From: Cenarchaeum sp.
Lineage (GTDB): Archaea > Thermoproteota > Nitrososphaeria > Nitrososphaerales > Nitrosopumilaceae
DNA: 64,000 bases
NCBI GenBank assembly: GCA_965242695.1
Contig: CBDESU010000002.1
Span: 544,001 to 608,000 of the forward strand
Direction: 5' to 3'
This document shows, piece by piece, positions 1,005 through 36,798 of the stretch (positions within the stretch are counted from its first letter, which is position 1; each line of letters opens with the position of its first letter). The position numbers and the translations under genes were made by a program. Under the pieces are notes generated by a model, which saw only the letters and a program-made list of their open reading frames with translations, was not told where the DNA came from and did not search any database.

Positions 1005-1433
1005 ATGGATGGCAAGGGGCGGATATGCAAAGTCTGCCCGCCGTTCGCGGGCGAGCGGCGGGAGTGCGTCGGGCAGGCAGCCGGGGCCATGGCCGACAGC
1101 CAGGCGCGGGTCTTTTACGACGGGTCTGCCGCAAACATGCGGGGCGGGGATCCCTCCGCCTGCTTTGAAGGGGTGTACTGCTCGCTGTCATGCTACTGCA
1201 TGATATTTTCTTCGCGCGGGTACGCGGCAAAAATGTGGCCGTCGCTTGAGCGGGCGCATGCGATCGCCAGGCGGATCAGGGACAGGGGAGACTGCGTGCT
1301 GCCGGCTGCGGCGGGCGGCGCCAGGGTGCCCGCCCGCCCGCGACGGTATTCGACGAGGATGCCCGCACAAAGTCTCCGCGGGAGATTGCGGGGGCGTTTG
1401 TGCGCCTGCTTCGATGGCAGGAATGCCTGCTAG
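1005..1433 (+). CDS. Small Cys-rich hypothetical protein
   Basis: ATG at 1005, 1 bp after the upstream stop. MDGKGRICKVC…CFEGVYCSLSCYC. Confidence 0.45.
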   Translation: MDGKGRICKVCPPFAGERRECVGQAAGAMADSQARVFYDGSAANMRGGDPSACFEGVYCSLSCYCMIFSSRGYAAKMWPSLERAHAIARRIRDRGDCVLPAAAGGARVPARPRRYSTRMPAQSLRGRLRGRLCACFDGRNAC

Positions 1434-1546
1434 TGCAGACGGTGCAGGGCGGCGGCCCCGGCGCGGGGCGTCAGTGGCCCAATGCGCACAGCCACGGAAA
1501 CAGGGTCGGCGAAATCTCATATACGGCCGGCCGCCGCGCCAAGCGC

Positions 1547-2284
1547 ATGTATGCGGCGGACGGAGCGCCCGCGGGGGCGGGGGGCACGGGGCAGGCGGGC
1601 GGCGATGCGCACGGCACGGGGCAGGCCACGACCGCCGGAGGGGGCGACGCCATCCTGATCGCTGCGAACCGCAGGGGCTACGAGGCGCCCAAGCCGGACA
1701 TGGCAGGCGCGGAGATCAAGGAAATGGCAGGCGCGGTGCGGCGCCACGCGCTCGTACTCGCGGCCGGAGATCCGGGCGGAAGCCCCGGCAGGGGCAGCGC
1801 GGCGCGCGGCGACGATCACGGCGAGTATGTCGAGACCGTCTGTGCGCGGGCAGTGCACGGCGGGGACGGCGCCGCGCGCGGCCCCGTAAGCAGGGCGGCC
1901 GCGCCGGCCGATCTGCCTCCAAAGCTGCGCGAGCACATGGCTGTCCTAGAGGGCAGGGGCTACAAGGTCGAGGCGATCGACAATGGCGAGATAGGCATCG
2001 TCATAAAGGACTACAAGATCCCCGGCCGCATCTGGAGCAGGGAGACTGCGGACCTCAGGCTCTCGACTGACTCGGCGTACCCAGAGACCAAGATCGGGGC
2101 GTTCTGGCTCTGTCCCCCCGTGTCGCGCAGGAACGGAGACACCATAAGGGGGGCGGGCAGCACCGTATGGCAGGGCAGGACATGGCAGACGTTCTGCTGG
2201 TACGTGGTGCACTGGGATCCCAGGCACGACAACCTGCTGACGCACCTGGATGTGGTCGACGACAGGATGTGGAGGGACGAGTAA
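1547..2284 (+). CDS. Degenerate multiubiquitin-like domain fused to prokaryotic E2 family E (UBC-like) domain
   Basis: N-terminal part aligns by eye to the Ubl at 12979-13374 and ends VHGG. C-terminal part is GIVIKDYKIP…YPETKIGAFWLCPPV…WQTFCWY…WDPRHDNLLTHL. TATA-like CATATA near 1518. Confidence 0.8.
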   Translation: MYAADGAPAGAGGTGQAGGDAHGTGQATTAGGGDAILIAANRRGYEAPKPDMAGAEIKEMAGAVRRHALVLAAGDPGGSPGRGSAARGDDHGEYVETVCARAVHGGDGAARGPVSRAAAPADLPPKLREHMAVLEGRGYKVEAIDNGEIGIVIKDYKIPGRIWSRETADLRLSTDSAYPETKIGAFWLCPPVSRRNGDTIRGAGSTVWQGRTWQTFCWYVVHWDPRHDNLLTHLDVVDDRMWRDE

Positions 2285-2365: not shown

Positions 2366-3782
2366 TCACGGCCGCGGGCCGCCTCGAGTGCGTGGCAAGC
2401 GAGCCAGACTGTGAGGGTGTGCGGAGGCGAGTTTTGGCTGCGGCTGGATGGGCGGCAATTTTGCCGGCAGCCGGGCAAAAGCCGCCCAAGTGCCGGCACG
2501 CGCGCCGCCGTCGCGGGACCGATCAGCCTGTGGACTGGGTCTTGCAAGGTATTCCGGGCATTCCAGCCCCGCCAGGTCCTCGTCTGGCGTGCTTCCTGAC
2601 GATATGGCGAACAGTATGTCCGGGCGGGGCGCGGGCATCCCGTCGACTTCCTTCGTCATGGAAAGCTCCTCTTCCGCAACGCAGCCTAGGTTTCCAAGCG
2701 AGGCGCCTACAATCCTGCAGTTCTCGTGCGTTTGAGCGGCCTCCTCGACGGCGTCCCCGAGCTGGTGCCCCCCATTGGCTCCCGTCAAACGGCGTAGGCG
2801 CGGTAGTCGTACACGACCTTGGTCGAGCAGTCCAGACTTGCGGGCGGAGCGCGCCTGGATCGGATGTGTCCTGTGCTCCCGTACGGAGCCTCTCCGCAAC
2901 GGGCGCGCCGCGCCCGCCGCCGTCGACGGGTGGCGCCGTCCCGCCCCCGATCGCGTCCCTTGGCAGCGGATGGCTGCTTGCCCCCTAGTCGACGGCGGGC
3001 ACTCGCTACATGCCGGGCCCGGGGGCCGCCGCCGGGGCGGCGCCGCCGCGGCCGCGGCCCGTCCGCGCCCTGATGCCCGTGCGGGGCGGCCGGTCGATGC
3101 GGGCGACCTCCCGCATCTTCGATATCTTTTCGAGCAGGGGCCGGTCGCACCGAACCCTGAGCGCGCAGTAGCCGTCCGTCGTCATCTGGTCCGTGATGCG
3201 GCCGCCGTCGCCGCTGACCACCGCCCGCATGCCGCCCATGAACCTGGACAGCCGCTCGTCATCCAGCCTCCATATTTCCACGTCTACGTACTCTTGCCCG
3301 CTCTCCGGCAGCGGCCTGCGCGACAGGCCCGCGCCGATTTTTTCTTCCGGCGGAATCTCCCGGATGGCGCGCACCTGGTCCATAAAGCTGCCCGTCTTTG
3401 CCGCAGCATGCCGCTCCAGCTTCCGCCGAAGCCTTGCAAAGCTGGGATCGTCCGTGAGCCCGACCCAGTATCCGCTCCCGGCGGGCGCCGACGACACCGT
3501 CTCGATCCCCACGCCCGCAAGGGATCTGCGGAACGTCTCTTCGCGGACCCTCGAGTAGAGCTCCACCTTGAAGACCAGGTTCGGGCTAGGGAGCGAGCCC
3601 GCCGACTCCTTGTCCCGCCGGTACGACTCGCCCATTTCGTCGAGCAGCCTGGCCTGGGCGCGGGCGAACGCCGCGGGATCCCTGCCGGCCCTCTTGGCGG
3701 GCGCCCGCCTGGATCTTGGCCTGCCGGGCTCGCCCGCCCCTTGCAGGCCGGGGCGCCGGCGCCGCATCATGCTAGCGGGCAT
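2366..3782 (-). pseudogene. IetS-like S8 (subtilisin) serine protease: open N-terminal domain (3006-3782) followed by a decayed catalytic domain
   Basis: Overlaps the AAA ATPase stop. Past the stop at 3006 the frame reads RVPAVD*GASSHPLPRDAIG (IDSG…HPLL motif), then DGGGRGAPVA (D..GHGT.VA motif), and after frameshifts CRIVGASLGN…DILFAISSG. Confidence 0.75.
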
Positions 3783-4668
3783 CCGGCCCGACCGCCTCGA
3801 TGCGCCGCCTCTGCCCCTCTATGGCGCGCCTCACGCCGGCCTCGTCGACCGAGTCGGCGCCGCCGACCACCGCCTCCCGCAGCGCATCCTCGCTCGCCTT
3901 TGCGACGTCGGCCGCGGAGAATCTGTCCGTCATTCCGGCCAGCTCCCCGTACGGCATGCGGCCCGACTTCTTGAGGGCGCCCAGGTACTTTTCAAGCAGC
4001 CTCTCCCTCCTGCCCCGGTCTGGGTTGTCGTAGTATACGACATCGTCGAACCTCCGCCAGAGCGCCCGGTCGAGCAGGTGCTGGTGGTTGGTCGCCGCCA
4101 GTATGATGCTCCGCCCCCTAAAGTCGTCCATCATCTGCATGAAGTTGTTGACGAGCCGCTTGATCTCGCCGTGCTCGTGGGGATCGTCCCGCTTTTTGCC
4201 GACAATGTCGAACTCGTCGAACATGACGACGAACCTCCCGCTCTCGGCGAACTCGAATATCCGCCTCAGGTTCGAGGCCGTCTCGCCCAGGTACGGCGAT
4301 ACGATCGAGTCGAACATGACATGGACCAGCCTGTACCCCATCGCGGTGGCCACCACCTTGGCCGTGAGGGTCTTGCCGGTGCCCGGGGGCCCGCACAAGA
4401 GCACCCTGCTTGTCGGCCGCAGTCCGTAGCGGAGCAGGTCGTCGAACGCCTTGTTCTCGTCGACGATCCTCTCGAGCCGCGCCCTGACGTCGCCGGCGAC
4501 GATCAGGTCGTCGAACGCGTGGTGCTCGTCGCGCACCTGGAGCAGCGGGATGCCCTTGTCGGCGTCGCGGGGAATGACGAGCGGGCGGCGGGCGGGAGGG
4601 GCGCGGCTCTCCTTGGCCCTGCGGGGGCGCGGCCGCCTGACCAGGGTGCCGGCCTCTGTGGCTGCCAT
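3772..4668 (-). CDS. AAA+ ATPase, IetA-like (AAA/S8 protease pair)
   Basis: Walker A GPPGTGKT, Walker B VMFDEFD, family motifs RDDPHEHGEIKRLVN and LDRALWRRFD. Confidence 0.92.
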   Translation of the reverse strand: MAATEAGTLVRRPRPRRAKESRAPPARRPLVIPRDADKGIPLLQVRDEHHAFDDLIVAGDVRARLERIVDENKAFDDLLRYGLRPTSRVLLCGPPGTGKTLTAKVVATAMGYRLVHVMFDSIVSPYLGETASNLRRIFEFAESGRFVVMFDEFDIVGKKRDDPHEHGEIKRLVNNFMQMMDDFRGRSIILAATNHQHLLDRALWRRFDDVVYYDNPDRGRRERLLEKYLGALKKSGRMPYGELAGMTDRFSAADVAKASEDALREAVVGGADSVDEAGVRRAIEGQRRRIEAVGPDAR

Positions 4669-5548: not shown

Positions 5549-6028
5549 TCACCGCGGCAGCCTGCGCCTGAACTCTAGGATGGCCGACATGGCCGCGGCC
5601 GCCTCTTTGCGAGTAAACTGCGGCTTTTGGCTCAGCAGATCCTCCACTGCGGCATCGGCATCCTTGGCAGAAGCGCTGCGCCGCGGCAAGAGGTACCACA
5701 GCGATGCGTACAGCTCCAACGTCTTGGCAGAGTTGATCCCTCTTCCGAGCAGGCCCTTCATTCTTGCCACCACGCCCTCTTCATGCGGGGTCAGGCGCAG
5801 GTCTTCGCCCAGCCTGCCCATGGACTCGTGCCTGAACAGCTCCCTGGTCAGCGTAGGCGAGTACGGGCCGCGGTGGTACCACGAGAACATGAACCCGCCG
5901 GACGCCCCAAGCTCCCGCGCCAGGTAGCCTAGCTTCTGCAGCCGGAGGCGGTCCTCAAACCCGGCAAGCGACACGCCGCAGAACGAGTTTACTATCTTCA
6001 TGGTCTCGTTTTCATGCGCCGGCTCCAT
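5549..6028 (-). CDS. YwgA/SocA-like wHTH antitoxin-like protein (subfamily A)
   Basis: DRLRLQKLGYL…FSWYHRGPYSPTL…LELYASLWY…KPQF. TATA-like box at 6051-6058. Confidence 0.85.
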   Translation of the reverse strand: MEPAHENETMKIVNSFCGVSLAGFEDRLRLQKLGYLARELGASGGFMFSWYHRGPYSPTLTRELFRHESMGRLGEDLRLTPHEEGVVARMKGLLGRGINSAKTLELYASLWYLLPRRSASAKDADAAVEDLLSQKPQFTRKEAAAAMSAILEFRRRLPR

Positions 6029-6251
6029 GCGGGCGCGCGGCGAGGGCCATTTATTAAGATTCTTAGGTCGGGCGCTGGTCGATGGTAACCGGGCCGCGCC
6101 TGCCAACGGGTCGGAGGGATGGGAGGCAGGGCGGCGGCCAAGCCGCGTATGCGGCTACCCGCCTGGCCGCCCGCTCGGCCCTGAACGGAAGGACCGCGTT
6201 CCCTTTCGGCAAGGCAGAGACTTCAAGGGGATCTGGCGGGGGGGACTATAC

Positions 6252-7118
6252 GTGACGGATGCAGATACCCCGGGCGGCGGGAAAGGCCGCAGTGAAAAGG
6301 GTGCGGCGGCGGCCAGCCATTTCCTCATCGATGCGCTGCCAGAGTCCGACCGCTCGTCCGCCCGCGACACCTGCAACGCGATAAGGATCAACAGGGCGAT
6401 CGGCGCGCCGAGCCCGCCCGGGGACGACGCGGTTAGGACGCTGGAGCGCGTCGCCATGGCATACGAGCTGGCCGCAATAGACCAGTGGCCCGGCCACGCC
6501 GGAGGCAACGGCAACGGCGACGGGAGCGAAAACTTCCAGCGAACGTGCGCCGAGTGCTTTGCCCTGATGGAGGCGTGCCCCATCCCCGCCGACCCGGTCC
6601 AAATGATCGGCCACGTGCTGCGGGCCGTCTCGTACGCGTACATGGGGGAAAGGCGGGAGGATGCGAGGCGGTACGCAAGGGAGACGGCGCCGCCGCCCCC
6701 GGCCGGCGGCGTGGGCCCGCCAGGGGAGTGGGAGCGCCGCATCCTGTTCGGCATCTACGGCGCCGTCATGCTTGCGGTCGGGGAGGAGGGTCCGGAGGAT
6801 CTTGCAAGGGCATCGGAGGCCATCGCCGGCCTCAGGCGCGACCAGGCGGGGCACGAAAGGCCCTACTTCGAGTCGCTCGAGCCGGCGTACAGGGCCACGG
6901 CCGCGCACAGGCTCGTATCGCTGTACCACCTTGCAAAGTGCACCGACATGGTATGCGAGTACATGCGAAGCGGCTCGCCTGCGGACATAGGGGCGCTCCT
7001 AGACTGCCACTTTGACATTGCGTTGCGGCACAGCGACATCGGCGGCGCCGGATCGGCCGAACTGGACACACTTCTTCGAATCGTGCGGCCCATGTTCGCA
7101 AAGATGGTGGGCGGCTAG
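6252..7118 (+). CDS. Stand-alone alpha-helical domain resembling the N-terminus of Hachiman HamB-like DEAD/DEAH helicases
   Basis: LERVAMAYELAAI…HVLRAVSYAYMGER…WERRIL…IAGLRRDQ…RLVSLYHLAK…LDCHF. No helicase motifs. Paralog at 8801-9802. Confidence 0.7.
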   Translation: MTDADTPGGGKGRSEKGAAAASHFLIDALPESDRSSARDTCNAIRINRAIGAPSPPGDDAVRTLERVAMAYELAAIDQWPGHAGGNGNGDGSENFQRTCAECFALMEACPIPADPVQMIGHVLRAVSYAYMGERREDARRYARETAPPPPAGGVGPPGEWERRILFGIYGAVMLAVGEEGPEDLARASEAIAGLRRDQAGHERPYFESLEPAYRATAAHRLVSLYHLAKCTDMVCEYMRSGSPADIGALLDCHFDIALRHSDIGGAGSAELDTLLRIVRPMFAKMVGG

Positions 7119-7232: not shown

Positions 7233-7700
7233 GTGAGAAAGACCGACCTGCTCCTCCTGCTCCTGTACGTCTACGACCGCCGCCCCGTCGCCGGGCTGAC
7301 GCGGCTCGTCAAGCTCCTGTTTCTGGCGCAGGCGGAGGCGCTGCCCGACGATCCGCTGCGCGCGCGCGGGTGCGCCCCGTTCGACTTTGTGGCCCACCGC
7401 TTTGGCCCGTTCACGTTCGACATATACGACGAAGTCGAGTTCTTAAAGTCGGTCGGGATGATGGCCGGCGATGATAACGACGACGATGACGGGCAGTTTC
7501 GCATCACGGACAAGGGATGCAGGTTCGCCGAGCAGCGCCTGCTGCAGAGGATTCCCGCCGATCAGATCGAGGGCATCGAGGAGGTCAAGAAAAAGCACTG
7601 CGACGAAGATCTCGACGATCTCTTCTACTACGTCTATACAAAGTATCCCGCGTACACCGTCAGGACCGAGATCCTCGACAGGGTGCTGAGGCGCAGGTAA
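7233..7700 (+). CDS. YwgA/SocA-like protein (subfamily B)
   Basis: TDLLLLLLY…GLTRLVKLLFLAQ…FDFVAHRFGPF…YVYTKYP. Confidence 0.8.
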   Translation: MRKTDLLLLLLYVYDRRPVAGLTRLVKLLFLAQAEALPDDPLRARGCAPFDFVAHRFGPFTFDIYDEVEFLKSVGMMAGDDNDDDDGQFRITDKGCRFAEQRLLQRIPADQIEGIEEVKKKHCDEDLDDLFYYVYTKYPAYTVRTEILDRVLRRR

Positions 7701-8007: not shown

Positions 8008-8517
8008 GTGTCGGCAGTGACGGATCCGGACGGCGCAGCCCGGGTGCTGCGCGTGCTGCGCACCTTTGGCCCCCTCGACACGGACAGCTTTGACAGCCGC
8101 CTGAGGCTGCAAATGCTCGCATACCTGATACAGGAGATCGGCGGCGGGGGGCCATACGTGCACCACTGGGCCATGCGCGGCCCGTACTCGGCGGGGCTCA
8201 CGGAGGATCTGGACGACGACAAGGAAAGGGGAGGCGGGGATCCAGCTGCGGATATCTCGGACGGCGACAGGGAGCTGGCGCAGCGGGTGAGGTCCCTCGT
8301 GGGCGACGTAGACGACCCCCTAGAGTCCGAGCTCTACGCATCGGTGTGGTTCTTGGCCCCCGCCAGGAGGCTGTCCGACTCGGAAAGGGCGCACATTAGG
8401 GAGAGCATGCGGCGCGCAAAGCCCCACTTTGCAAAGGAGCGGGTCGGCGAGGCGCTCGGCGCCATAGAGGCGTTCCGCGCGGGGAGCGGCGCGGCGCCGC
8501 AGGGCAGCGCAGGCTAG
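8008..8517 (+). CDS. YwgA/SocA-like protein (subfamily A)
   Basis: FDSRLRLQMLAYLIQE…WAMRGPYS…ELYASVWF…KPHF. Confidence 0.85.
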   Translation: MSAVTDPDGAARVLRVLRTFGPLDTDSFDSRLRLQMLAYLIQEIGGGGPYVHHWAMRGPYSAGLTEDLDDDKERGGGDPAADISDGDRELAQRVRSLVGDVDDPLESELYASVWFLAPARRLSDSERAHIRESMRRAKPHFAKERVGEALGAIEAFRAGSGAAPQGSAG

Positions 8518-8800
8518 GCCGCGCCCGCCCCTGCCGCCCCGGCCGGCCAGGGCCGATGCCAAGGCGGGCGCAAGCCCGTCCCCGTCGTCCTGGACGGCGG
8601 CGCTGGCGCAGAGCGGGCGCGTCGATGCCTGCAAGTCCGCCTTTACGGGGACGAAGAGGGGGGGGCATTCCGCCGGGCCCGCCGGCATGCCGCATCCCGG
8701 CGCACAGATCCCGCACGCTTCCCGGCTCGGGCCACGCCGCCGCGGCGCGCGACGGGCTGCCGCCATCCACCCTTTTATGCAGCCGCCGCAGCGGCCGACG

Positions 8801-9802
8801 GTGCAGCAAGGCGACGCGGCGCGTTCCATAATCGACGAGCTGGACAAGGACAGGGTGCGCGCCGCGTTCGAGGCCGTGCGCAGGCTAGAGACGGAGCGAG
8901 CGAGGGCGAAGGAAGGCGGGCGCGGCGTGGCAGGGGCGGCTGCAAATGCGGGCAGCATGGACGACATCAAGTACGTGGCCACGGCGTACGAGATGTCCGC
9001 CATATTCATGTGGCGGTACGCGGCGCGCGGCGGAGGCGCGGCGGCGGATGCCAAGGGGGAGGAGGCGGGCGCGGCGCGGCGCGCCGGCGAGCTGGAAGGC
9101 CTGTGCCGCACGGCCTTTGCCTTGATGGGGGCGTGCCCCGTGCCGGACAAGCCGGTCCAAAAGATCTGCCATGTCCTGTCCTTGTTCTCGTACGCGTATG
9201 TGGGCGGGAGGGGGGAGGACATGGGGCACTACCTTGACGAGCGCGGCGAAGAGGCGTCCCTGCCCGAGGTCAAGGTGGAGGGATCCGGCATGGGCTGGGA
9301 GTACGACATGCTGGCCGGAATATACTCGGCCCTGCTGTGCGTCATCAGGGGGCGCGACGCGGCCGAGCTGCGGCGCGCACGCGGCACGATAGCGCGCCTG
9401 CGCCGCATGCAGGGGCTGCACGAGCGGGACCACATCGAGTCGTTTGCGCCCGAGCACAGGTTCTGGCCCGCGCGCCGCCTCGCCGCACTGTACCACCTGG
9501 CGAGGTGCGTCGAGCTGCTCGCCGAGTTCATGGAGACGGGCAGGCCCGGCGGCATCGAGCGGGAGCTCGACTTCCACTTTGACGAGGCGTTTAGCCACGG
9601 CTGCGATGCGGGATCGGCCGAGCTTGACGTGCTGCTCCGGACGGTGCGGCCCGCGTTCGTGAGGATGGCAAGGGGCGCTGCCGGGGCGCCGGCAGGGCCG
9701 GCGGGCAACGGCAACGGCGCGGCCTGCCTGGCCGGCCGGAGGGGCCCGGACGGGGGCGATACAGAATCGACCCGACAGCAGACGGAAAAAAGGCAGGGGT
9801 GA
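8801..9802 (+). CDS. Second stand-alone HamB-like N-terminal helical domain
   Basis: VATAYEMSAI…HVLSLFSYAYVGGR…IARLRRMQ…RLAALYHLAR…LDFHF…SAELDVLLR. Clear paralog of 6252-7118. Confidence 0.7.
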   Translation: MQQGDAARSIIDELDKDRVRAAFEAVRRLETERARAKEGGRGVAGAAANAGSMDDIKYVATAYEMSAIFMWRYAARGGGAAADAKGEEAGAARRAGELEGLCRTAFALMGACPVPDKPVQKICHVLSLFSYAYVGGRGEDMGHYLDERGEEASLPEVKVEGSGMGWEYDMLAGIYSALLCVIRGRDAAELRRARGTIARLRRMQGLHERDHIESFAPEHRFWPARRLAALYHLARCVELLAEFMETGRPGGIERELDFHFDEAFSHGCDAGSAELDVLLRTVRPAFVRMARGAAGAPAGPAGNGNGAACLAGRRGPDGGDTESTRQQTEKRQG

Positions 9803-9807
9803 CGCCC

Positions 9808-10281
9808 TCACACGTGGCCGCGGAACTTTTCGATCCGGGCCAGCGCGGCCTCTACGTCGCGGGTTCCAAAGTGGCGCTTTTCCTCCCCCATCCTGGCAAT
9901 GATCGACCGCCTGTCCTCCTCGGACAGGGCGCGGTCGGGGGCCAGGTAGCACACCGAGGCGTACAGCTCCAGCCGCAGCGGATCGTCCACGTCGTCGCCC
10001 ATGAGCGCCTGGACCTTGTACGCCGCCCCCCGCTCCGAGGGAGTGAGCTCGGGGTTGTCCTCGTACGCCCCAAGCTCGTCGCCCGAGCAGAGCATCTGGG
10101 TGAGCGACGGCGAGTAGGGCCCCCGTATGTACCAGTGGAAGAGAAAGGGGCCCCCGCCGCCCATCTCCTGTATGAGGAATGCGAGCTTTTGGAGCCGCAG
10201 GCGATCGCCAAGGCCGTCGATCCTGATGGGGCCCAGGTACCGCAGTATCCTCAGGGTCCTGTTCTCGTCGTATATGCTCAA
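9808..10281 (-). CDS. YwgA/SocA-like protein (subfamily A)
   Basis: DRLRLQKLAFLIQE…FHWYIRGPYSPSL…LELYASVCY. TTG start inferred. Confidence 0.85.
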   Translation of the reverse strand: MSIYDENRTLRILRYLGPIRIDGLGDRLRLQKLAFLIQEMGGGGPFLFHWYIRGPYSPSLTQMLCSGDELGAYEDNPELTPSERGAAYKVQALMGDDVDDPLRLELYASVCYLAPDRALSEEDRRSIIARMGEEKRHFGTRDVEAALARIEKFRGHV

Positions 10282-10532
10282 TGCCGGGGTGGATATGCCG
10301 CGGCGTTTATGCGTTCTTGTGCGGCTGCCCGGCGCCCGGCGCCGCCCCGCAGGGGCGCCCGTGCGGCAGGCGCGACGCTGGCGCAGTGCGCCGGCGGCCA
10401 CCAATATGCGGCGCCGGCAGAAGGGCGGATGGAAGGACGGCGCGCTCAAGGGCGGCCGCCGGCCGGGAGGCAGGGCGGCGGCGGCAAAAGACGAAAGGGG
10501 GCGAGGCGGACGGAGGCCATGGCGGCCGCCGG

Positions 10533-11009
10533 CTAGCGGCTGCTCCTGCGAAACTCCTCGATCTCGGCGAGCGCCGCGGCCACCTGCTCCTCTTTGAAGT
10601 GGGGCTTTGCGCACCGCATGGTCTCTATGATGGACTCCCTGTCCCCCTCGTCTAGGTTGGCCATGGGGGTGATGTACCACACCGCTGCGTACAGCTCCAG
10701 CGTCAGGGGATCGTCGATCCTGCCGTGCACGAGCGACCTGACCCTGCCGGCGATCCGCCGGTCCTCCTCTGTGATGGGGGCCCTGCCGGGCGGATCGTCG
10801 TAGTCGCACCAGAAGCGCAGCTCCCTGGCAAGCGCCGGCGAGTTCGGGCCGCGTATCTGCCAATAGTACCCAAAGCTGTGGTAGTCGCCCACCTCTTGGA
10901 TCAGAAACGCCAGCTTTTGCATGCGGAGGCGATCGTCAAACTTGTCGATGCGTATGGGGCCAAACGACTCTAGTATGTTCAGCGTCCGCATCATGTCCCG
11001 TCCGTACAC
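10533..11009 (-). CDS. YwgA/SocA-like protein (subfamily A)
   Basis: FDDRLRMQKLAFLIQE…WQIRGPNSPAL…LELYAAVWY…KPHF. TATA-like TTTTTAAG at 11031-11040. Confidence 0.85.
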   Translation of the reverse strand: MYGRDMMRTLNILESFGPIRIDKFDDRLRMQKLAFLIQEVGDYHSFGYYWQIRGPNSPALARELRFWCDYDDPPGRAPITEEDRRIAGRVRSLVHGRIDDPLTLELYAAVWYITPMANLDEGDRESIIETMRCAKPHFKEEQVAAALAEIEEFRRSSR

Positions 11010-11228
11010 TGCCGAGGGCGCATGCGGGCGGCTTAAAAACGGTTCGAGTCCGGGTCGGGCGCCGCGGCGCCCGTCCCGCCGTCGCATCTGCGCAGGGTGC
11101 GTGCCCTTATTTCTTCAGGCGGCACATGCGGCCAAGAGACTCACGGTTCCCGGGGCCGCACGTTCGGGATCGCGGCGCCGCTCCCGCCGGTCACAATTGC
11201 GGCAAGCCCGGCCGCCCCGCGCGCCCCC

Positions 11229-12602
11229 TCACGTGGCATCCCCCGCGTACGGCGCCGACAGCGGCATGCAGCCGCCCCTGCCCGTCCTCGCGGCGCACAC
11301 GCAGCCCGGCCTGGCCCTCGACGCGGGAAAGGTCGTCTCTAGCGTGCCGACATCGACGAGCAGCATGCTCCGCGCAGGATCCGTAATTCCGAACAGCATG
11401 TCCTTGAGCAGGAGCACCGCGTAGCTTGCAGCCATTGTGGTGAGCGACACGACCGACGGGGCCTCTTCGTCGCCTAGGCCTACGACGTACCCCTCGCGCT
11501 CGCGCGCCCTCCTGTCGGCGGGATCGAGCGACTCTGCCAGTATCCTGTCGGGGCTGATTATGCCCGAGCAGAACAGGCACGGGAGTGACGGCGCGACAAT
11601 GCTCGCCCTCACGGTGCCGCCGGCCATCCTGCCGTCCCTCGAGTCTATCCCCACCCCTACGTCGATGACGGGCACAAAGTACTGGTACGCGAGCTCGTTG
11701 AGCACGCTGCGCGGCGCCTGCCTGTCGGTGCAGCCGAACACCATGTCGCACTCACCGAGGCATGCGAGCGCCTCCTGCGACACAATGTCCATGGCCGCCG
11801 CGTCGACGGCGGCATCGGGCGCAATCCTCCCAATGTTCTCCTTTACGACCTCCACCTTTGGCCTGTCCCGCGTGGCGGCGTCCGTGCCGTACATGCGCGT
11901 CAGGTTGCTGGCCGAGAACGCATCGCGGTCGACCAGGGTGAAGCGCTTCACGCCCGCCCTGGCAAGCTGCTCGGCGACCGACGAGCCGGTGCCGCCGACG
12001 CCGGCTATGCCCACCCTGATGCCGGACAGTATCCTCTGCCCGGCGATCCCGAACGCGCGGATCTGCCGGTCGTACAGGGACGTGTCGACGGTGTCCTCGC
12101 CCGCATTATGGGCGAGCGGCCGCATGGCCATCCGGCGGCCCACCACCCTGAGCTCGTCGATCGGCTCTACGCCGCCGTCCTCGGTCCACACCCTGCCCGC
12201 CATCGACTCTGGCCCGAAGAGGAGGCTCCCCATCGGCCTGCCGTAGAGGCACTTTCTGACGGTGTCCGACGACTCGGACTCGCCGTAGTCGTCCGACGGG
12301 GAGTACTCCAGGGCCGCGCCTCCGAGCGGGTGCGTGTGCATCTGGATAACGGTGATGCCGTCCGCATCGGCCGCCCCGATCGCCCTGTTGAAGTACAGGG
12401 GGGATATCTCCAAGTGTCGGGCGGTGCGCACGTTGTAGTCGCGCTCGCCGGGGATCAGGACGTCCCTGACGGCAAGGTGGATTCCGCGCTCGGTCCTAAA
12501 GTATCCCGCGGTGGCAAGGGCGGCCGACTCGACGCTCCGGTCCTGGAGCAGGTACCGGCGCAGCGTGGCAAGATGCTCAGATGTGATTCTGACCGTGTTC
12601 AT
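11229..12602 (-). CDS. JAB/MPN peptidase fused to ThiF/E1-like adenylyltransferase
   Basis: JAB motif E…HTHP-x7-SPSDD. E1 motifs YDRQ, GVGGTGS, DRD…SNLTR, GCTD, PCLFC…GY and C-terminal CVC. Confidence 0.92.
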   Translation of the reverse strand: MNTVRITSEHLATLRRYLLQDRSVESAALATAGYFRTERGIHLAVRDVLIPGERDYNVRTARHLEISPLYFNRAIGAADADGITVIQMHTHPLGGAALEYSPSDDYGESESSDTVRKCLYGRPMGSLLFGPESMAGRVWTEDGGVEPIDELRVVGRRMAMRPLAHNAGEDTVDTSLYDRQIRAFGIAGQRILSGIRVGIAGVGGTGSSVAEQLARAGVKRFTLVDRDAFSASNLTRMYGTDAATRDRPKVEVVKENIGRIAPDAAVDAAAMDIVSQEALACLGECDMVFGCTDRQAPRSVLNELAYQYFVPVIDVGVGIDSRDGRMAGGTVRASIVAPSLPCLFCSGIISPDRILAESLDPADRRAREREGYVVGLGDEEAPSVVSLTTMAASYAVLLLKDMLFGITDPARSMLLVDVGTLETTFPASRARPGCVCAARTGRGGCMPLSAPYAGDAT

Positions 12603-12604
12603 GG

Positions 12605-12982
12605 TCACTCGTTCCTGCTCATCCGGTCGTCCACTACGGTCAGGTACGTCAGCAGGCTGTCGTGGACGGGATCCCAGGTCCCCACGTGCCAGCTGAAGCG
12701 CTGCCACTGCCTTCCGAACTGGTCCTCGATCGTCGCGGCGTTGACCGGGGCGCCGCGCCTTAGCGACACGGGCGGGTCGAGCCAGAACATGTCGATCGTC
12801 GCGTTCGGGTACGTCGGGTGCGTCTTGATCAGCAGGTCGGCCGACGGCCTGTCCCAGATCTCGGCCGGGATGGGATAGTCCTTGACGACGATGCCGATCT
12901 CGTCGCCCAGTATGGTCTCTACCGTGCGGCCCTCTTCGCGCAGCCTGTCAATGTCGGCCTGGAGGGCGGGCGGCAGCCTCAC
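12605..12982 (-). CDS. Prokaryotic E2 family E (UBC-like) protein
   Basis: GIVVKDYPIP…YPNATIDMFW…WQRFSWH…WDPVHDSLLTYL. Overlaps the Ubl gene (GTGA) and abuts JAB-E1. Confidence 0.88.
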   Translation of the reverse strand: MRLPPALQADIDRLREEGRTVETILGDEIGIVVKDYPIPAEIWDRPSADLLIKTHPTYPNATIDMFWLDPPVSLRRGAPVNAATIEDQFGRQWQRFSWHVGTWDPVHDSLLTYLTVVDDRMSRNE

Positions 12983-13374
12983 GGGACATCACCGGGCCCC
13001 CGCGGCGTTGGGCGGGGCTGCAAGTGCCTGGCGTCCGGCGTCTTGATATGGTTCAATGTCCCGCCGAACGCGCCCGCGTTTACGATGCGGAACCTCATTC
13101 CGCCTGCAAGGTTGACGGACTGGTCGTCCAGTACGGCCTCGCCGTCCCCGCCCGGCCCCGCGGCGGGGCCGCCCTCGATCCGGATGACCAGGCGGTTCAT
13201 CGGCTCCTTTGCCAGCCTCTTGAGGTCGGCGCCGGTCATCGAGGGCCCGTCGACCTGGTACGCTGTGTTGTTGATGGAGATTGTGATGCGATCGGCGCCG
13301 CCCGTGCGCGCAGCCGGGCCCGCGGCGCCGCCGCTGCCGCCGGGCGCGGGGCCAGGCTCCCCGTTGTCCGCCAT
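12979..13374 (-). CDS. Multiubiquitin-family ubiquitin-like protein with C-terminal extension
   Basis: ITISINNTAYQV…MTGADLKRLA…VLDDQSVNLAGGMRF…AGAFGG plus a tail. TATA-like TAAATATG at 13396-13403. Confidence 0.82.
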   Translation of the reverse strand: MADNGEPGPAPGGSGGAAGPAARTGGADRITISINNTAYQVDGPSMTGADLKRLAKEPMNRLVIRIEGGPAAGPGGDGEAVLDDQSVNLAGGMRFRIVNAGAFGGTLNHIKTPDARHLQPRPTPRGPGDVP

Positions 13375-13516
13375 TCCGACTTCACTTTGCATGTGCATAT
13401 TTAGACCATGCCCGCAGGCCGTGCGCGGGTCGAACGCATATCCAGATCTATGGGACGGTGCGCGCCGGGCAGGGATGCGCCTTCCCCTGTACCTTGCCGG
13501 GATTGCGCTTCCGGCC

Positions 13517-16006: not shown

Positions 16007-16492
16007 TTACCGCCTCATCTTGCGCTTGAACTTTAGTATGGCAGACGCCGCCCCGGCCGCCTCTTCGCGTGTGAACTGGGGCTTGCGGCTGAGCAGCTCG
16101 TCCACGGCCGAGTCCGCGTCCCCGGCCGTTGCGGCGCGGCGCCGCGGGAAAAAGTACCAGAGCGACGCGTAGAGCTCCAAGTCGTAGGAAGAGTCGATCC
16201 CGTCGCCGAGCAAATCCCTCATCCTTGCCACCACGCCCCTTTCGCGCCTAGTCAGGCGCTGCTCAGCTCCCAGCCTGCCCTGCGACTCGTACCTGTACAG
16301 CTCCTTCGTCAGTGTAGGCGAGTACGGGCCGCGGTGGTACCACGAGAACATGAACCCGCCGGATGCCCCGAGCGCCTGCGCCAAGTAACCGAGTTTTTGG
16401 AGCCGGATGCGATCCTCGAATCTTGCGAGCGTGACATGGCAGAACGAGTTGGCTATCCTCATCGTCTCGCTGTCGCTGTACGTCGGGGGCAA
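16007..16492 (-). CDS. YwgA/SocA-like protein (subfamily A), close paralog of 5549-6028
   Basis: FEDRIRLQKLGYLAQALGASGGFMFSWYHRGPYSPTLT…LELYASLWY…KPQFTR. Confidence 0.87.
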   Translation of the reverse strand: MPPTYSDSETMRIANSFCHVTLARFEDRIRLQKLGYLAQALGASGGFMFSWYHRGPYSPTLTKELYRYESQGRLGAEQRLTRRERGVVARMRDLLGDGIDSSYDLELYASLWYFFPRRRAATAGDADSAVDELLSRKPQFTREEAAGAASAILKFKRKMRR

Positions 16493-16596
16493 TAGGGGCG
16501 CGCCGGAGAGGCGGCTATTAATAATTTTTCCCGCGGCGGCCAACGGCCGCGGCCGCGCCCGCCAAGAGATAAAGCCGGCGCACGGGGCGGCGGCCC

Positions 16597-35317: not shown

Positions 35318-36524
35318 CCACCCCCACCTTTTTGCAGAGGCCGTCGAGGTGCTTGAGGTCTATGTCGAGGTAGTCGCCAAGATCAAGGGCCGTAATGGCC
35401 CCCCTTTCATGCGACGAGACGGCGAGCCTGATGAACTTTCGGCCCATTCGCGATATAAGAATGACCGGGTACTGCGGCCCGCCTTTTTCCTCTTCCTCTT
35501 CCTCTTCCTCTTCCTCGCCTTCGTCCTTGGGCTTTTGCCTGCGGCTGTGGTGCCCCGCCACGCCGTTGAGGACGCCGCCGTACGCGGTACGGTGCCTGCC
35601 GCCCGGCATGTCGGCGGCTCTGACCGCCGCAGCGTACCTGCTCACCTTGAACCTTCTAGCAAGATCCTTGACGATCTCGAACGGGTCGTCCGACTCCCCC
35701 TCAAGCCTCTTGCGCTCGGCGGCGAACTCGGCCCCCGGCATCAAGAAGGAGGCGGCAAAGCGGTTGCACCACATCTCCGCCCGCTTCCTGTCCGAGTCCA
35801 AGCGCGCCGTTCCGTGCTCGTCGCAGACGCCGCCCATGCCAAGCAGGATGTGGCCGTACTCGTGCAGCAGGGTAAAGGCCTTGGCCTGGTCAATGTCCTT
35901 TGAGTTGACCAGTATTGCGCGCGGGTCGGTGTCCGCCAGGGACAGCCCGCACACGCCTTCCGTGGCCAGCGGGTACTGGAACACGAATATGTTCAGCCCC
36001 TCGATCGCCCTGCGAAGCATCCCGTACATGTCACGAGACGATCCCCCGACAGGCCCGTCGAGGCTCCCCGCCACCGCAAGCCTGGCCCGCTCCGCGCGCG
36101 CCGTCTCCTCGGCGGAATCGTCCACGGTGACCCCCGCGGGGATGTCCGGCCCGGCGGCAATGCCGCGGGCGTCCATCATCTCCCCTGCGGCGGACTGCAT
36201 GTAGCGCACGCGCCTGACTGTGGGCAGGTCTCCGGCATCCAGCCTTTCCGGGGCGTTGCGCATCATCCTAAAGTCTGGCAGGTGCTCGCGTTCGGGCGGA
36301 ACCGTGCTGAGGAGCAGGTTCTCGGACATTTTTACGCACTTGGCCAAGGCCCTCACCATCGTGTACTCAATTTTGCCGGTGCTGGCCCAGTCGTCGACTC
36401 GCATCCTGTCGACCCCCAGCTTCCGCGCTATGGTGTCGTGATCCATGCCGCTGCTCTCGATGATCGACCTTACGACGAGCGGCTTGAGCTGCAGCCCAAT
36501 GCGGGGCGTGCGGGGAGCCATCAA
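35310..36524 (-). CDS. XRE-HTH plus ImmA/IrrE zinc metallopeptidase (RosmerTA RmrA-like)
   Basis: HTH, LPDFR, IFVFQ, AFTLLHEYGH, EMWCNRFAASFLMP, RFKVS. Confidence 0.9.
   Translation of the reverse strand: MMAPRTPRIGLQLKPLVVRSIIESSGMDHDTIARKLGVDRMRVDDWASTGKIEYTMVRALAKCVKMSENLLLSTVPPEREHLPDFRMMRNAPERLDAGDLPTVRRVRYMQSAAGEMMDARGIAAGPDIPAGVTVDDSAEETARAERARLAVAGSLDGPVGGSSRDMYGMLRRAIEGLNIFVFQYPLATEGVCGLSLADTDPRAILVNSKDIDQAKAFTLLHEYGHILLGMGGVCDEHGTARLDSDRKRAEMWCNRFAASFLMPGAEFAAERKRLEGESDDPFEIVKDLARRFKVSRYAAAVRAADMPGGRHRTAYGGVLNGVAGHHSRRQKPKDEGEEEEEEEEEEKGGPQYPVILISRMGRKFIRLAVSSHERGAITALDLGDYLDIDLKHLDGLCKKVGVGE
35487..35516. repeat. (TTCCTC)x5 microsatellite encoding a poly-Glu tract
   Basis: Read directly. 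Absent from the paralog at 58675-59862. Confidence 0.9.
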
Positions 36525-36798
36525 GGGCGTGCCGTTTCGCGCCTTTATGTCTCAAACGGATCACAGAATCGGGGGCGTCCCTGGCCTTTGGCGTCGACGG
36601 CGGGCCGATAGGGTGTGGGCGGCCCCCGTATGCGCTAGTGCGGCTCGGCTGGCAGGGCGCTTTTCAGGACAACGTGGCCGCCCCTGCCATTCTCGCGCAC
36701 ACCGCGCTCTCCCCCGCCCGCCCGCTGCGCGCGCCGGCGGGTCGCTCATTCCGGCGGCGTATGGATATTGCCCGCAGTCCGGCGCGCACTCAGGGCCG

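Follow-up and report, generated by a model that had tools for sequence, protein, structure and literature searches.

A putative Bub-type ubiquitin-like conjugation operon without DUF6527 in a defence island of a Cenarchaeum genome

Introduction

Can a ubiquitin-like protein (Ubl) conjugation system of the Bub type be encoded by an archaeon, and without the protease by which Bub systems are defined? The question is raised by three adjacent genes for a Ubl, an E2 and a JAB-E1 fusion protein in a 64,000-nt stretch of DNA from Cenarchaeum sp. (assembly GCA_965242695.1, contig CBDESU010000002.1, positions 544,001-608,000 of the forward strand); this whole stretch, of ~68% G+C, is referred to below as the window, and coordinates are counted from its first letter. 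Bub systems are the only known Ubl cascades proposed to run wholly via oxyester intermediates, formed on Tyr and Ser residues, and have so far been described for bacteria and defined by DUF6527. At the window locus, an archaeon that oxidises ammonia encodes this catalytic core in fully conserved form and without DUF6527, and relatives of the locus reveal a separate clade pairing this core with TIR, kinase-like or cyclic oligonucleotide-based antiphage signalling system (CBASS) genes. From the comparison of these proteins with characterised Bub enzymes, it is considered likely that the operon is a functional minimal three-gene Bub (6E)-type Ubl conjugation module in an ammonia-oxidising archaeon.

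Gene organisation and catalytic residues

The three open reading frames (ORFs) are co-directional on the minus strand and tightly coupled, and span 11229-13374 in the order Ubl-E2-(JAB-E1). The Ubl precursor gene (12979-13374, 131 amino acids (aa), Pfam Multi_ubiq) ends in a TGA stop codon that overlaps the GTG start of the standalone, BubB-like E2 gene (12605-12982, 125 aa, Pfam Prok-E2_E) as GTGA, the two ORFs lying in different frames, and the ATG of the JAB-E1 fusion gene (11229-12602, 457 aa, Pfam ThiF and BubCD alignment) is found 2 nt after the E2 stop codon. The three coupled genes reported in a preliminary description of this DNA are thereby confirmed at this place. The start of the Ubl was set at 13374 because 10 aligned sequences all share M1-A2-D3, while the 8 codons upstream of it vary or are missing. 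The longest ORF for the E1 (492 aa) reaches 12707, but the start at 12602 was retained since MN[TS][IV]R, which opens 24 of the 28 homologs in the alignment, falls at this ATG.

When all PDB sequences were searched with phmmer, the top match of JAB-E1 was Citrobacter BubCD (9ea4_A, E 7.7e-32) over residues 5-396, a span that takes in both the JAMM and the adenylation domains, followed by MoeB (E 4e-19) and ThiF (E 4e-13). Pfam ThiF matches the C-terminal two thirds of the protein (E 2.6e-34, 118.9 bits against a cut-off of 28.1) as a single domain at residues 212-469 of the 492-aa longest ORF, and the adenylation domain takes up about residues 170-457 of JAB-E1. The JAB domain (about residues 1-165; 12108-12602, minus strand) is recognised from the BubCD alignment and from a conserved E...HxH...S..D motif, with E25, H89, H91 and D104 standing opposite the BubCD JAMM residues. 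As described earlier, the E1 has a CxxC motif (C342/C345), no later Cys in the crossover segment and a GY motif, G371-Y372, whose Tyr (codon 11487-11489, minus strand) aligns with that of BubCD ...ergyitgv.... Invariant in 28 E1 homologs are E25, H89, H91, S101, D104, R179, GxGGTGS, D293, C342, C345, Y372, C434 and C436, among them the four zinc Cys. Across 164 E1 rows from the fetched loci, the JAMM Glu/His/His/Asp and the adenylation Arg/Asp are near-universal, all 157 non-gap rows have the crossover Tyr, and only 4 of the 164 show a crossover Cys.

The E2 matches Pfam Prok-E2_E (E 4.6e-24, 85 bits, cut-off 25), and among PDB sequences scores best against Citrobacter BubB (9eae_C, E 2.8e-6), in an alignment that places idmfw/fswh opposite ldmfy/wsrh. 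This alignment predicts an active site made of Asp64 (12791-12793), Ser97 (12692-12694) and His99 (12686-12688), all on the minus strand, and the S-x-H motif noted at the outset proves to be S97-W98-H99. Among 159 E2 domains in the fetched loci, the Ser is kept in 157, the His in 156 and the Asp in 154. In Citrobacter BubCD the crossover-loop Cys is absent and the Tyr, Y370, is invariant; BubB carries Ser333, His335 and Asp299, and either Y370F or S333A/H335A abolishes Bub conjugation (PMC11601596). The window residues Y372, S97, H99 and D64 align to Y370, S333, H335 and D299.

Relatives of the E1 fall into 18 clusters at 78-98% identity, 15 of them full-length and 3 covering 77-90% of the query. 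The 14 close relatives of the E2 (69-94% identity) are all standalone proteins, 10 of exactly 125 aa. This conservation over 18 E1 and 14 E2 clusters is indicative of purifying selection. PADLOC returned partial adenylation-domain matches to CBASS 'E1-E2' models and none for the E2 or Ubl, PADLOC 2.0 having no Bub models, and in an NCBIfam scan of the E1 every match fell far below its cut-off, including those to the SAMP E1 model NF047750 (51.8 bits against 450) and to MoeB (80.3 against 266).

The Ubl precursor and its processing site

The Ubl consists of a Gly/Ala/Pro-rich N-terminus (residues 1-28), one beta-grasp domain (about residues 29-104) and a C-terminal tail (residues 105-131), and is matched by Pfam Multi_ubiq (E 3e-6, 27.8 bits, cut-off 24.5). 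An AlphaFold model based on 28 sequences has a beta-grasp fold in which the core, residues 30-99, reaches block values of the predicted local distance difference test (pLDDT) of about 75-91, except for about 59 over residues 71-80, and in which both ends, the N-terminus and residues 104-121, are disordered with pLDDT below 50. Foldseek searches with this model returned bacterial multi-ubiquitin/BubA structures as all of the top 9 PDB matches (probability 1.0, E 3e-3 to 8e-3), among them BubA(155-229) bound to BubCD. The fold search alone recovered the BubA structures, phmmer with the Ubl against PDB sequences giving nothing meaningful (best match RifT, E 0.51).

An alignment of 10 rows was made from the query and 9 database proteins at 61-100% identity, among them the gene call of the window itself; all 10 have F103 and G104, and identity collapses past G104. 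The AFGG sequence to which attention had been drawn occupies residues 102-105 and is followed by 26 residues to the C-terminus, and the tail beyond the conserved Gly is indeed kept in relatives: a variable extension of ~25-30 residues is present in 8 of the 9 database Ubls (7 independent relatives), one ending at FG, and the tail ends ...PG[DGE]VP in 6 of the 10 aligned sequences. In three of four Nitrososphaerota loci (L010-L012) the Ubl gene stops right after ...TFG, and in the fourth (L009) it ends ...TFGW; in all four (around 5608-5625 of each locus) an in-frame stop follows the Ubl and the E2 restarts 1-3 codons on in the same frame. The Ubl of these loci would be produced pre-matured, since the gene ends at the processing Gly, and the E1 there still has an intact JAB domain. 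Because invariance ends at Gly104, the first Gly of AFGG, and the Nitrososphaerota genes stop there, this residue was taken as the processing site. The JAB domain of Citrobacter cuts the Ubl of BubAB after a conserved Gly (PMC11601596), and by analogy the window Ubl would be cleaved after Gly104, leaving a predicted mature protein of residues 1-104 that ends in Phe103-Gly104 (13063-13374, minus strand) and releasing a tail of 27 codons (residues 105-131; 12982-13062, minus strand). The tail is dispensable in sequence, yet it is retained in the window's lineage.

Ubl and E2 genes separated by no more than a stop codon are also seen in bacteria, where in 13 DUF6527 loci (L016, L035, L044, L045, L061, L064, L065, L068, L069, L073, L076, L077 and L079) they form same-frame ORFs. 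These stop-split bacterial Bub Ubls end ...NPG plus 0-5 residues, and a few bacterial Bub Ubls have tails of more than 20 residues (L055, L075).

Host genome and independent contigs

The archaeal nature of the host, as given in the preliminary description, is borne out by the genome (3.89 Mb, 2 contigs, 96% complete), in which the archaeal small-subunit (1450 bits) and large-subunit rRNA models score best within their Rfam clans and an archaeal AmoA is encoded (E 2e-118), which marks the host as an ammonia oxidiser of the Nitrososphaerota. With ~3.9 Mb, the genome has roughly double the length of most genomes sampled from the family (1.1-1.9 Mb, and one of 4.3 Mb), and the sole other genome sampled from the genus, of 1.8 Mb, gave no match to Prok-E2_E. 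Among sampled genomes of the phylum this domain is rare, exceeding the cut-off in 3 of 401, this one included, and in 2 of the 56 from the same family.

Near-identical DNA is present in sequencing runs of five studies, several of them labelled sponge metagenomes. One contig (X5) shows 0 differences over 12366-13187, a single contig (X6) over 11229-13319 differs by 25 substitutions and 0 gaps, and a third (X10) over 12820-13420 has 7 differences and no gap; a more divergent X10 contig carries in the Ubl tail a net insertion of 6 nt, in frame. Contigs from three other studies' runs thus cover the Ubl/E2 junction without frame-changing gaps. A further contig (X1) is identical across the whole locus but may be the assembly's own source. 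Since relatives and independent metagenome contigs keep both the split arrangement and the tail, the separation of Ubl and E2 is neither an assembly error nor a recent frameshift, and the tail is not an assembly error.

Phylogeny of the E1 and occurrence of DUF6527

The DUF6527 protease BubE defines Bub and is stated to be present in all Bub operons (PMC11601596), and the operon sets of the two Bub preprints were drawn from DUF6527-containing operons. A DUF6527-less Type I-like branch could not have entered such a set, because the set was built from DUF6527 operons. Here, species-representative GTDB loci were gathered through the E1 alignment (the best 80 of 366 relatives) and searched with a hidden Markov model (HMM) for DUF6527 built from 13 Pfam-verified ORFs. 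Of the 80 loci, 77 have E2_E directly upstream of the E1 and 64 have DUF6527 next to the E1; no DUF6527 was found at the 6 archaeal loci among the 80, at the in-genome paralog of the operon or in 14 kb around the window locus.

A quick maximum likelihood tree of 79 E1 proteins, midpoint-rooted for drawing only, divides them into two branches, each with a support of 100 in the Shimodaira-Hasegawa-like approximate likelihood ratio test (SH-aLRT). The first holds 64 rows, all bacterial, 60 of them with DUF6527; the second, which holds the window E1, has 15 rows, made up of all 8 archaeal loci and 7 bacterial ones. Within it the window E1 and its in-genome paralog are sisters (SH-aLRT 99, 58% identity) inside a 6-row Nitrososphaerota clade (SH-aLRT 100). 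Of the designation 'bacterial-type' given to the operon beforehand, what stands is the Bub-like core; the E1 itself sits in a clade dominated by archaea.

Metagenome loci were sampled as the best 80 of 389 relatives and divided by listing order, not by a tree, into the 54 best-ranked (L093-L146) and 26 lower-ranked ones (L147-L172). DUF6527 is present in none of the 54 and in 19 of the 26.

Partner genes in related loci

A gene of ~270 aa carrying Pfam TIR_2 (X-TIR) follows the E1 in L009, L011, L012, L036, the paralog and the bacterial L033, and stands directly after it in 5 of the 8 archaeal loci of the 15-row clade. In the 54 best-ranked metagenome loci a TIR gene occurs in 14 of the 44 that have enough downstream DNA or are already TIR-positive, a denominator chosen because ten TIR-negative loci have less than 900 nt downstream. 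Pfam scans of 25 downstream ORFs, with L115 and L126 left out as near-duplicates of L114 and L125, revealed a TCAD9/APH kinase-like gene after the E1 in 8 (L108, L110, L111, L114, L116, L125, L132 and L143), seven of the predicted proteins being ~515-557 aa and that of L132 ~344 aa, as well as an HATPase_c_3 protein in L131 and an HNH-SAVED gene followed by a CD-NTase gene in L144. HNH-SAVED and CD-NTase genes also follow the E1 of L083. In both of these loci (L083:5600-9745 and L144:3300-7745) the Ubl-E2-(JAB-E1) module is directly upstream of the HNH-SAVED gene and a DncV-like CD-NTase gene, so arranged that they look like a CBASS operon in which a free Ubl and a Bub-type module replace Cap2/Cap3. 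Three-gene loci without a partner recur in the BubE-less group, for example L010, L097/L098 and L120/L122/L129.

The paralogous operon lies ~450 kb away on the same contig (G000:C2 ~100.7-103.7 kb; L089:6764-9700, L002) and encodes a fused Ubl-E2 (...ATFGSQAAIRVPP...), a JAB-E1 and an X-TIR, which is the sole TIR gene of the genome. Its E1 is 58% and its Ubl ~40% identical to that of the window. The paralog lies in an island of 55-58% GC within ~70% GC DNA, and its X-TIR frame is broken at an A8 run (L089 ~7262-7269), which may reflect a sequencing error in the homopolymer, a pseudogene or slippage.

Functional interpretation and alternative explanations

Taken by its sequence, the locus holds a real oxyester-type Ubl conjugation module within a defence island, probably a functional one, with a role and targets that its setting may suggest. 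Its conjugation chemistry is transferred from work on Citrobacter and E. coli Bub. The three genes would be transcribed as one unit with coupled translation, the JAMM domain would cut the 131-aa Ubl precursor after Gly104 and remove the 27-residue tail, and the E1 domain would then adenylate Gly104. The Ubl would pass as an oxyester to Tyr372 of the E1 crossover loop and onward to Ser97 of the E2, with His99 and Asp64 assisting, before being joined to a lysine of a target protein. The defence-island setting and the effectors linked to the closest relatives would fit an antiviral or stress-response role. The trio would be either self-sufficient, as in Bil-type tagging, or tied to an effector that has been lost or is encoded elsewhere.

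Several observations weigh against a functional Bub-type module. PF20137 (DUF6527/BubE) has 0 matches in the whole genome, 96% complete, in a scan for which a Caulobacter control was positive, and no TIR or other partner adjoins the trio, the downstream ORF at 10533-11087 being without a family match. The term 'complete' used of the operon at first was therefore too strong, DUF6527 being absent genome-wide and the fourth, effector-like gene of close family members missing here. Pfam Prok-JAB has no match on the JAB domain at E<=0.01 and none in the genome scan either, and the fold matches of the Ubl have modest E-values (3e-3) and stem from a model with a mean pLDDT of 69. As to the chemistry itself, the Tyr and Ser oxyester intermediates of Bub were inferred from mutants and not trapped, and a BubA-BubCD adduct still forms with Y370F (PMC11601596).

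A wider proposal, put forward tentatively and in itself doubtful, is that the BubE-less, Nitrososphaerota-centred Bub branch is a portable cassette for swappable effectors (X-TIR, TCAD9 kinase-like, CBASS CD-NTase and HNH-SAVED), acting in a regulatory role like that of Cap2/Cap3 but with a true Ubl and oxyester chemistry, the window copy either tagging viral proteins on its own, in the manner of Bil, or regulating in trans. Rather unlikely as an account of the window copy is the explanation that the trio is not self-sufficient but serves some immune effector as an accessory or regulatory unit; the window copy would have lost this effector or act in trans with one from another locus, e.g. the paralog's TIR, and in relatives control would run between the module and the TIR, kinase-like or CBASS gene next to it, in one direction or the other. 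The partner genes of the 15-row E1 clade (SH-aLRT 100), with X-TIR in 5 of 8 archaeal loci, argue for this explanation, as do the X-TIR of the paralog, whose E1 is the sister of the window E1, and the metagenome loci L093-L146, of which 14 of 44 have a TIR gene, 8 of those scanned a TCAD9/APH-like gene and two (L144 and L083, the latter outside that set) HNH-SAVED/CD-NTase genes, none with DUF6527. The recurrence of partner-less trios in the same clade, however, suggests that the trio can stand alone. Cross-talk with the paralog is not obvious either, given the divergence of its E1 (58%) and Ubl (~40%), and the frame of the paralog's TIR is interrupted at the A8 run.

It could also be argued that the trio is what remains, inactive and decaying, of a system of four genes among degraded paralogs, for a fourth gene (DUF6527, TIR or other) is missing and the window contains two orphan Prok-E2_E with altered active-site residues and no E1; this is improbable, as the three ORFs are intact, all catalytic and zinc-binding residues and the GTGA translational coupling are preserved, relatives at 61-98% identity keep full-length genes in the same split architecture, and the strain variants amount to substitutions and one in-frame indel, with nothing frame-breaking. 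A sulfur-carrier pathway of the ThiS/MoaD/SAMP type, with the Ubl thiocarboxylated for cofactor or tRNA thiolation and no E2 conjugation, would agree with the ThiF/MoeB-type adenylating domain of the E1 and with the fact that archaeal SAMPs act as sulfur carriers, but is highly improbable in view of the scores of all ThiF, MoeB and UbaA NCBIfam models far below cut-off, an E1 that has neither a rhodanese domain nor a crossover Cys, a dedicated E2 and a processing JAB coupled or fused to that E1, another ThiF-like E1 elsewhere in the genome, and neighbours that are defence and not cofactor genes.

Relationship to known ubiquitin-like systems

The preferred interpretation of the operon as a functional Bub-type module is placed here against the systems already described. 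Type I Bub (6E.1; Citrobacter BubAB/BubCD/BubE; PDB 9ea4, 9ea8, 9eae, 9eav) shares with the window operon the JAB-E1 fusion with its JAMM and adenylation residues, the invariant crossover Tyr in place of a catalytic Cys, the E2 Ser/His/Asp triad, a multi-ubiquitin-type beta-grasp Ubl with a conserved processing Gly, and the order Ubl-E2-(JAB-E1). The window operon differs in its archaeal host, in lacking DUF6527/BubE from operon and genome alike, in a Ubl that has one beta-grasp domain and the motif ...TFG, where Bub has three and ...NPG, and in having neither CapW nor an adjacent CapH/CapP regulator pair. It also differs from the published text on Type I, according to which every operon has its Ubl fused to the E2 (PMC11601596), in that Ubl and E2 are separate, as opposed to the fused BubAB. 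Yet in the accompanying Table S1 at least 31 Type I operons have Ubl and E2 as separate genes (PMC11601596), and among the best 150 representatives of E2 clusters there are 99 standalone proteins (<=160 aa) and 50 of >=185 aa in which the E2 is C-terminal. Given these split forms and standalone E2s, the fusion does not truly define Type I, and the split is not new.

Type II Bub (6E.2; BubA, the E2-E1 fusion BubBD, and BubE) has the Tyr/Ser chemistry and the Ubl family in common with the window operon, in which the E2 is unfused to the E1, a JAB is present, DUF6527 is absent and the E2 partner residues, His and Asp, follow the Type I pattern. Two Type II entries in the same Table S1 are archaeal, 'Candidatus Nitrosopumilus adriaticus' and 'Uncultured Crenarchaeota C2' (PMC11601596), so that Bub-type systems in the host's archaeal phylum are already on record, in a supplementary table only. 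In the two Bub preprints TIR is unmentioned and the main texts refer to archaea solely for the origin of a JAMM structure; no TIR-coupled or archaeal Type I-like Bub variant is described in the literature searched, outside which most subscription journals lie.

The likeness to both Bub and Bil operons proposed in the preliminary description holds for Bub, to which the top PDB matches (BubCD, BubB) and the aligned residues point, and not for Bil. Bil (BilA-D) likewise comprises Ubl, E2, JAB and E1 genes in a defence context, and its Ubl is conjugated directly to the target without an E3 (summarised in PMC11601596); its E1, however, is built of an inactive and an active adenylation domain in tandem and a Cys domain, its JAB is separate and its E2 uses Cys, whereas the window has a single adenylation domain fused to the JAB, a Tyr for the Cys, and a Ser in the E2.

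Type II CBASS shares the E1/E2/JAB module type through Cap2/Cap3, there joined to the operon of an immune effector, with Cap2 a weaker match in PDB and PADLOC that is confined to the adenylation domain, and L083 and L144, relatives of the window E1, adjoin CBASS-type HNH-SAVED and CD-NTase genes. Cap2 is an E2-E1 fusion with a catalytic Cys that has no free Ubl and conjugates the CD-NTase itself; the window, by contrast, encodes a free Ubl, a separate Ser-type E2 and a JAB fused to the E1.

SAMP/UbaA/HvJAMM1 and the eukaryote-like ubiquitin systems of archaea (Caldiarchaeum, Asgard) have in common with the window a beta-grasp modifier, a ThiF-type E1 and a JAMM protease. The distinction drawn from both at the outset is upheld: SAMP operates without an E2, whereas the window E1, with its score of 51.8 bits against the SAMP cut-off of 450, is coupled to one. 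Eukaryote-like archaeal ubiquitin systems use Cys-type E1 and E2 enzymes and a RING E3, in contrast to the Ser of the window E2 and the Cys-less crossover of its E1; no search aimed at a RING E3 was made. Makarova and Koonin 2010 found at that time no E2-like proteins in archaea and a single Jab-E1 fusion, that of methanogen RC1 (PMC2948915), and Kaur et al. 2020 regard Ubl-conjugation systems, in general, as parts of prokaryotic conflict systems.

If the interpretation is correct, non-thioester Ubl chemistry reaches into archaea, BubE is dispensable for the core reaction, and the operon offers a compact three-protein system (~710 residues in total) for testing Ubl conjugation in prokaryotic immunity. 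The locus would be of greater interest if the BubE-less, effector-coupled clade were confirmed as a distinct class; it has no bearing on the origin of eukaryotic ubiquitin of the kind that Asgard systems have.

Expression signals and genomic neighbourhood

A TATA-like box, TAAATAT (13397-13403, minus strand), is an AT-rich heptamer in this GC-rich DNA, centred ~26 nt upstream of the Ubl ATG; it is a plausible archaeal TATA box, its position fits a leaderless or short-leader transcript, and it may serve as the promoter of the operon. Scans for sigma-70 promoters and intrinsic terminators gave nothing on the operon strand and are not informative for an archaeon, the sigma-70 result being expected since the host is archaeal. 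A Shine-Dalgarno-like GGTGAT (12988-12993, minus strand), read within the last codons of the Ubl tail, sits 5 nt before the E2 GTG start and may contribute to coupled translation.

The window is a defence island. Among the PADLOC and Pfam matches are IetA/IetS twice, PDC-M23B twice, PDC-M68B with an ABC-3C middle component, two DNA methyltransferases, a MORC-like ATPase-Mrr protein, an Mrr_N protein, a PtuB-like HNH protein, PDC-M41B/DUF5131, two capP-like M78 peptidases and restriction-like genes; the operon had been called one of few intact modules here, which does not agree with so many intact defence genes. The capP-like M78 peptidase genes (35318-36562 and 58683-59894) encode proteins of ~400 aa and share 73% DNA identity, and the IetA-like AAA genes (3772-4668 and 45810-46775) are related to each other; these pairs point to duplicated defence modules in the island.

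Apart from that of the operon, two more Prok-E2_E ORFs lie in the window, at 1400-2284 (plus strand, E 9.5e-15) and 57570-58085 (plus strand, E 2.9e-15), and neither has an E1 in its vicinity. Over 387 nt (1897-2283 versus 57698-58084) the two share 90% identity, and at the family's Asp, Ser and His positions they have Gly, Cys and Tyr, being the only 2 of 159 E2 domains with a Cys at the Ser position; the ORF at 1400-2284 also has a degenerate, Ubl-like N-terminal part. These orphans could be decayed copies or a Cys-type variant.

The operon is flanked by five paralogous ORFs (5549-6106, minus; 8008-8517, plus; 9808-10332, minus; 10533-11087, minus; and 16007-16543, minus) of ~155-185 aa and 35-47% identity, with the core R.R.Q.L...W..RGP.S and no Pfam family. 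The label 'Panacea-like' was considered for them and dropped, as hhalign against the bona fide SocA_Panacea of the window gave a probability of 0.1 and Pfam nothing. Two of the five give weak PADLOC matches to part of DarG (E about 1e-6), and two adjoin the PDC-M23B-like genes at 6000-7118 and 8687-9802.

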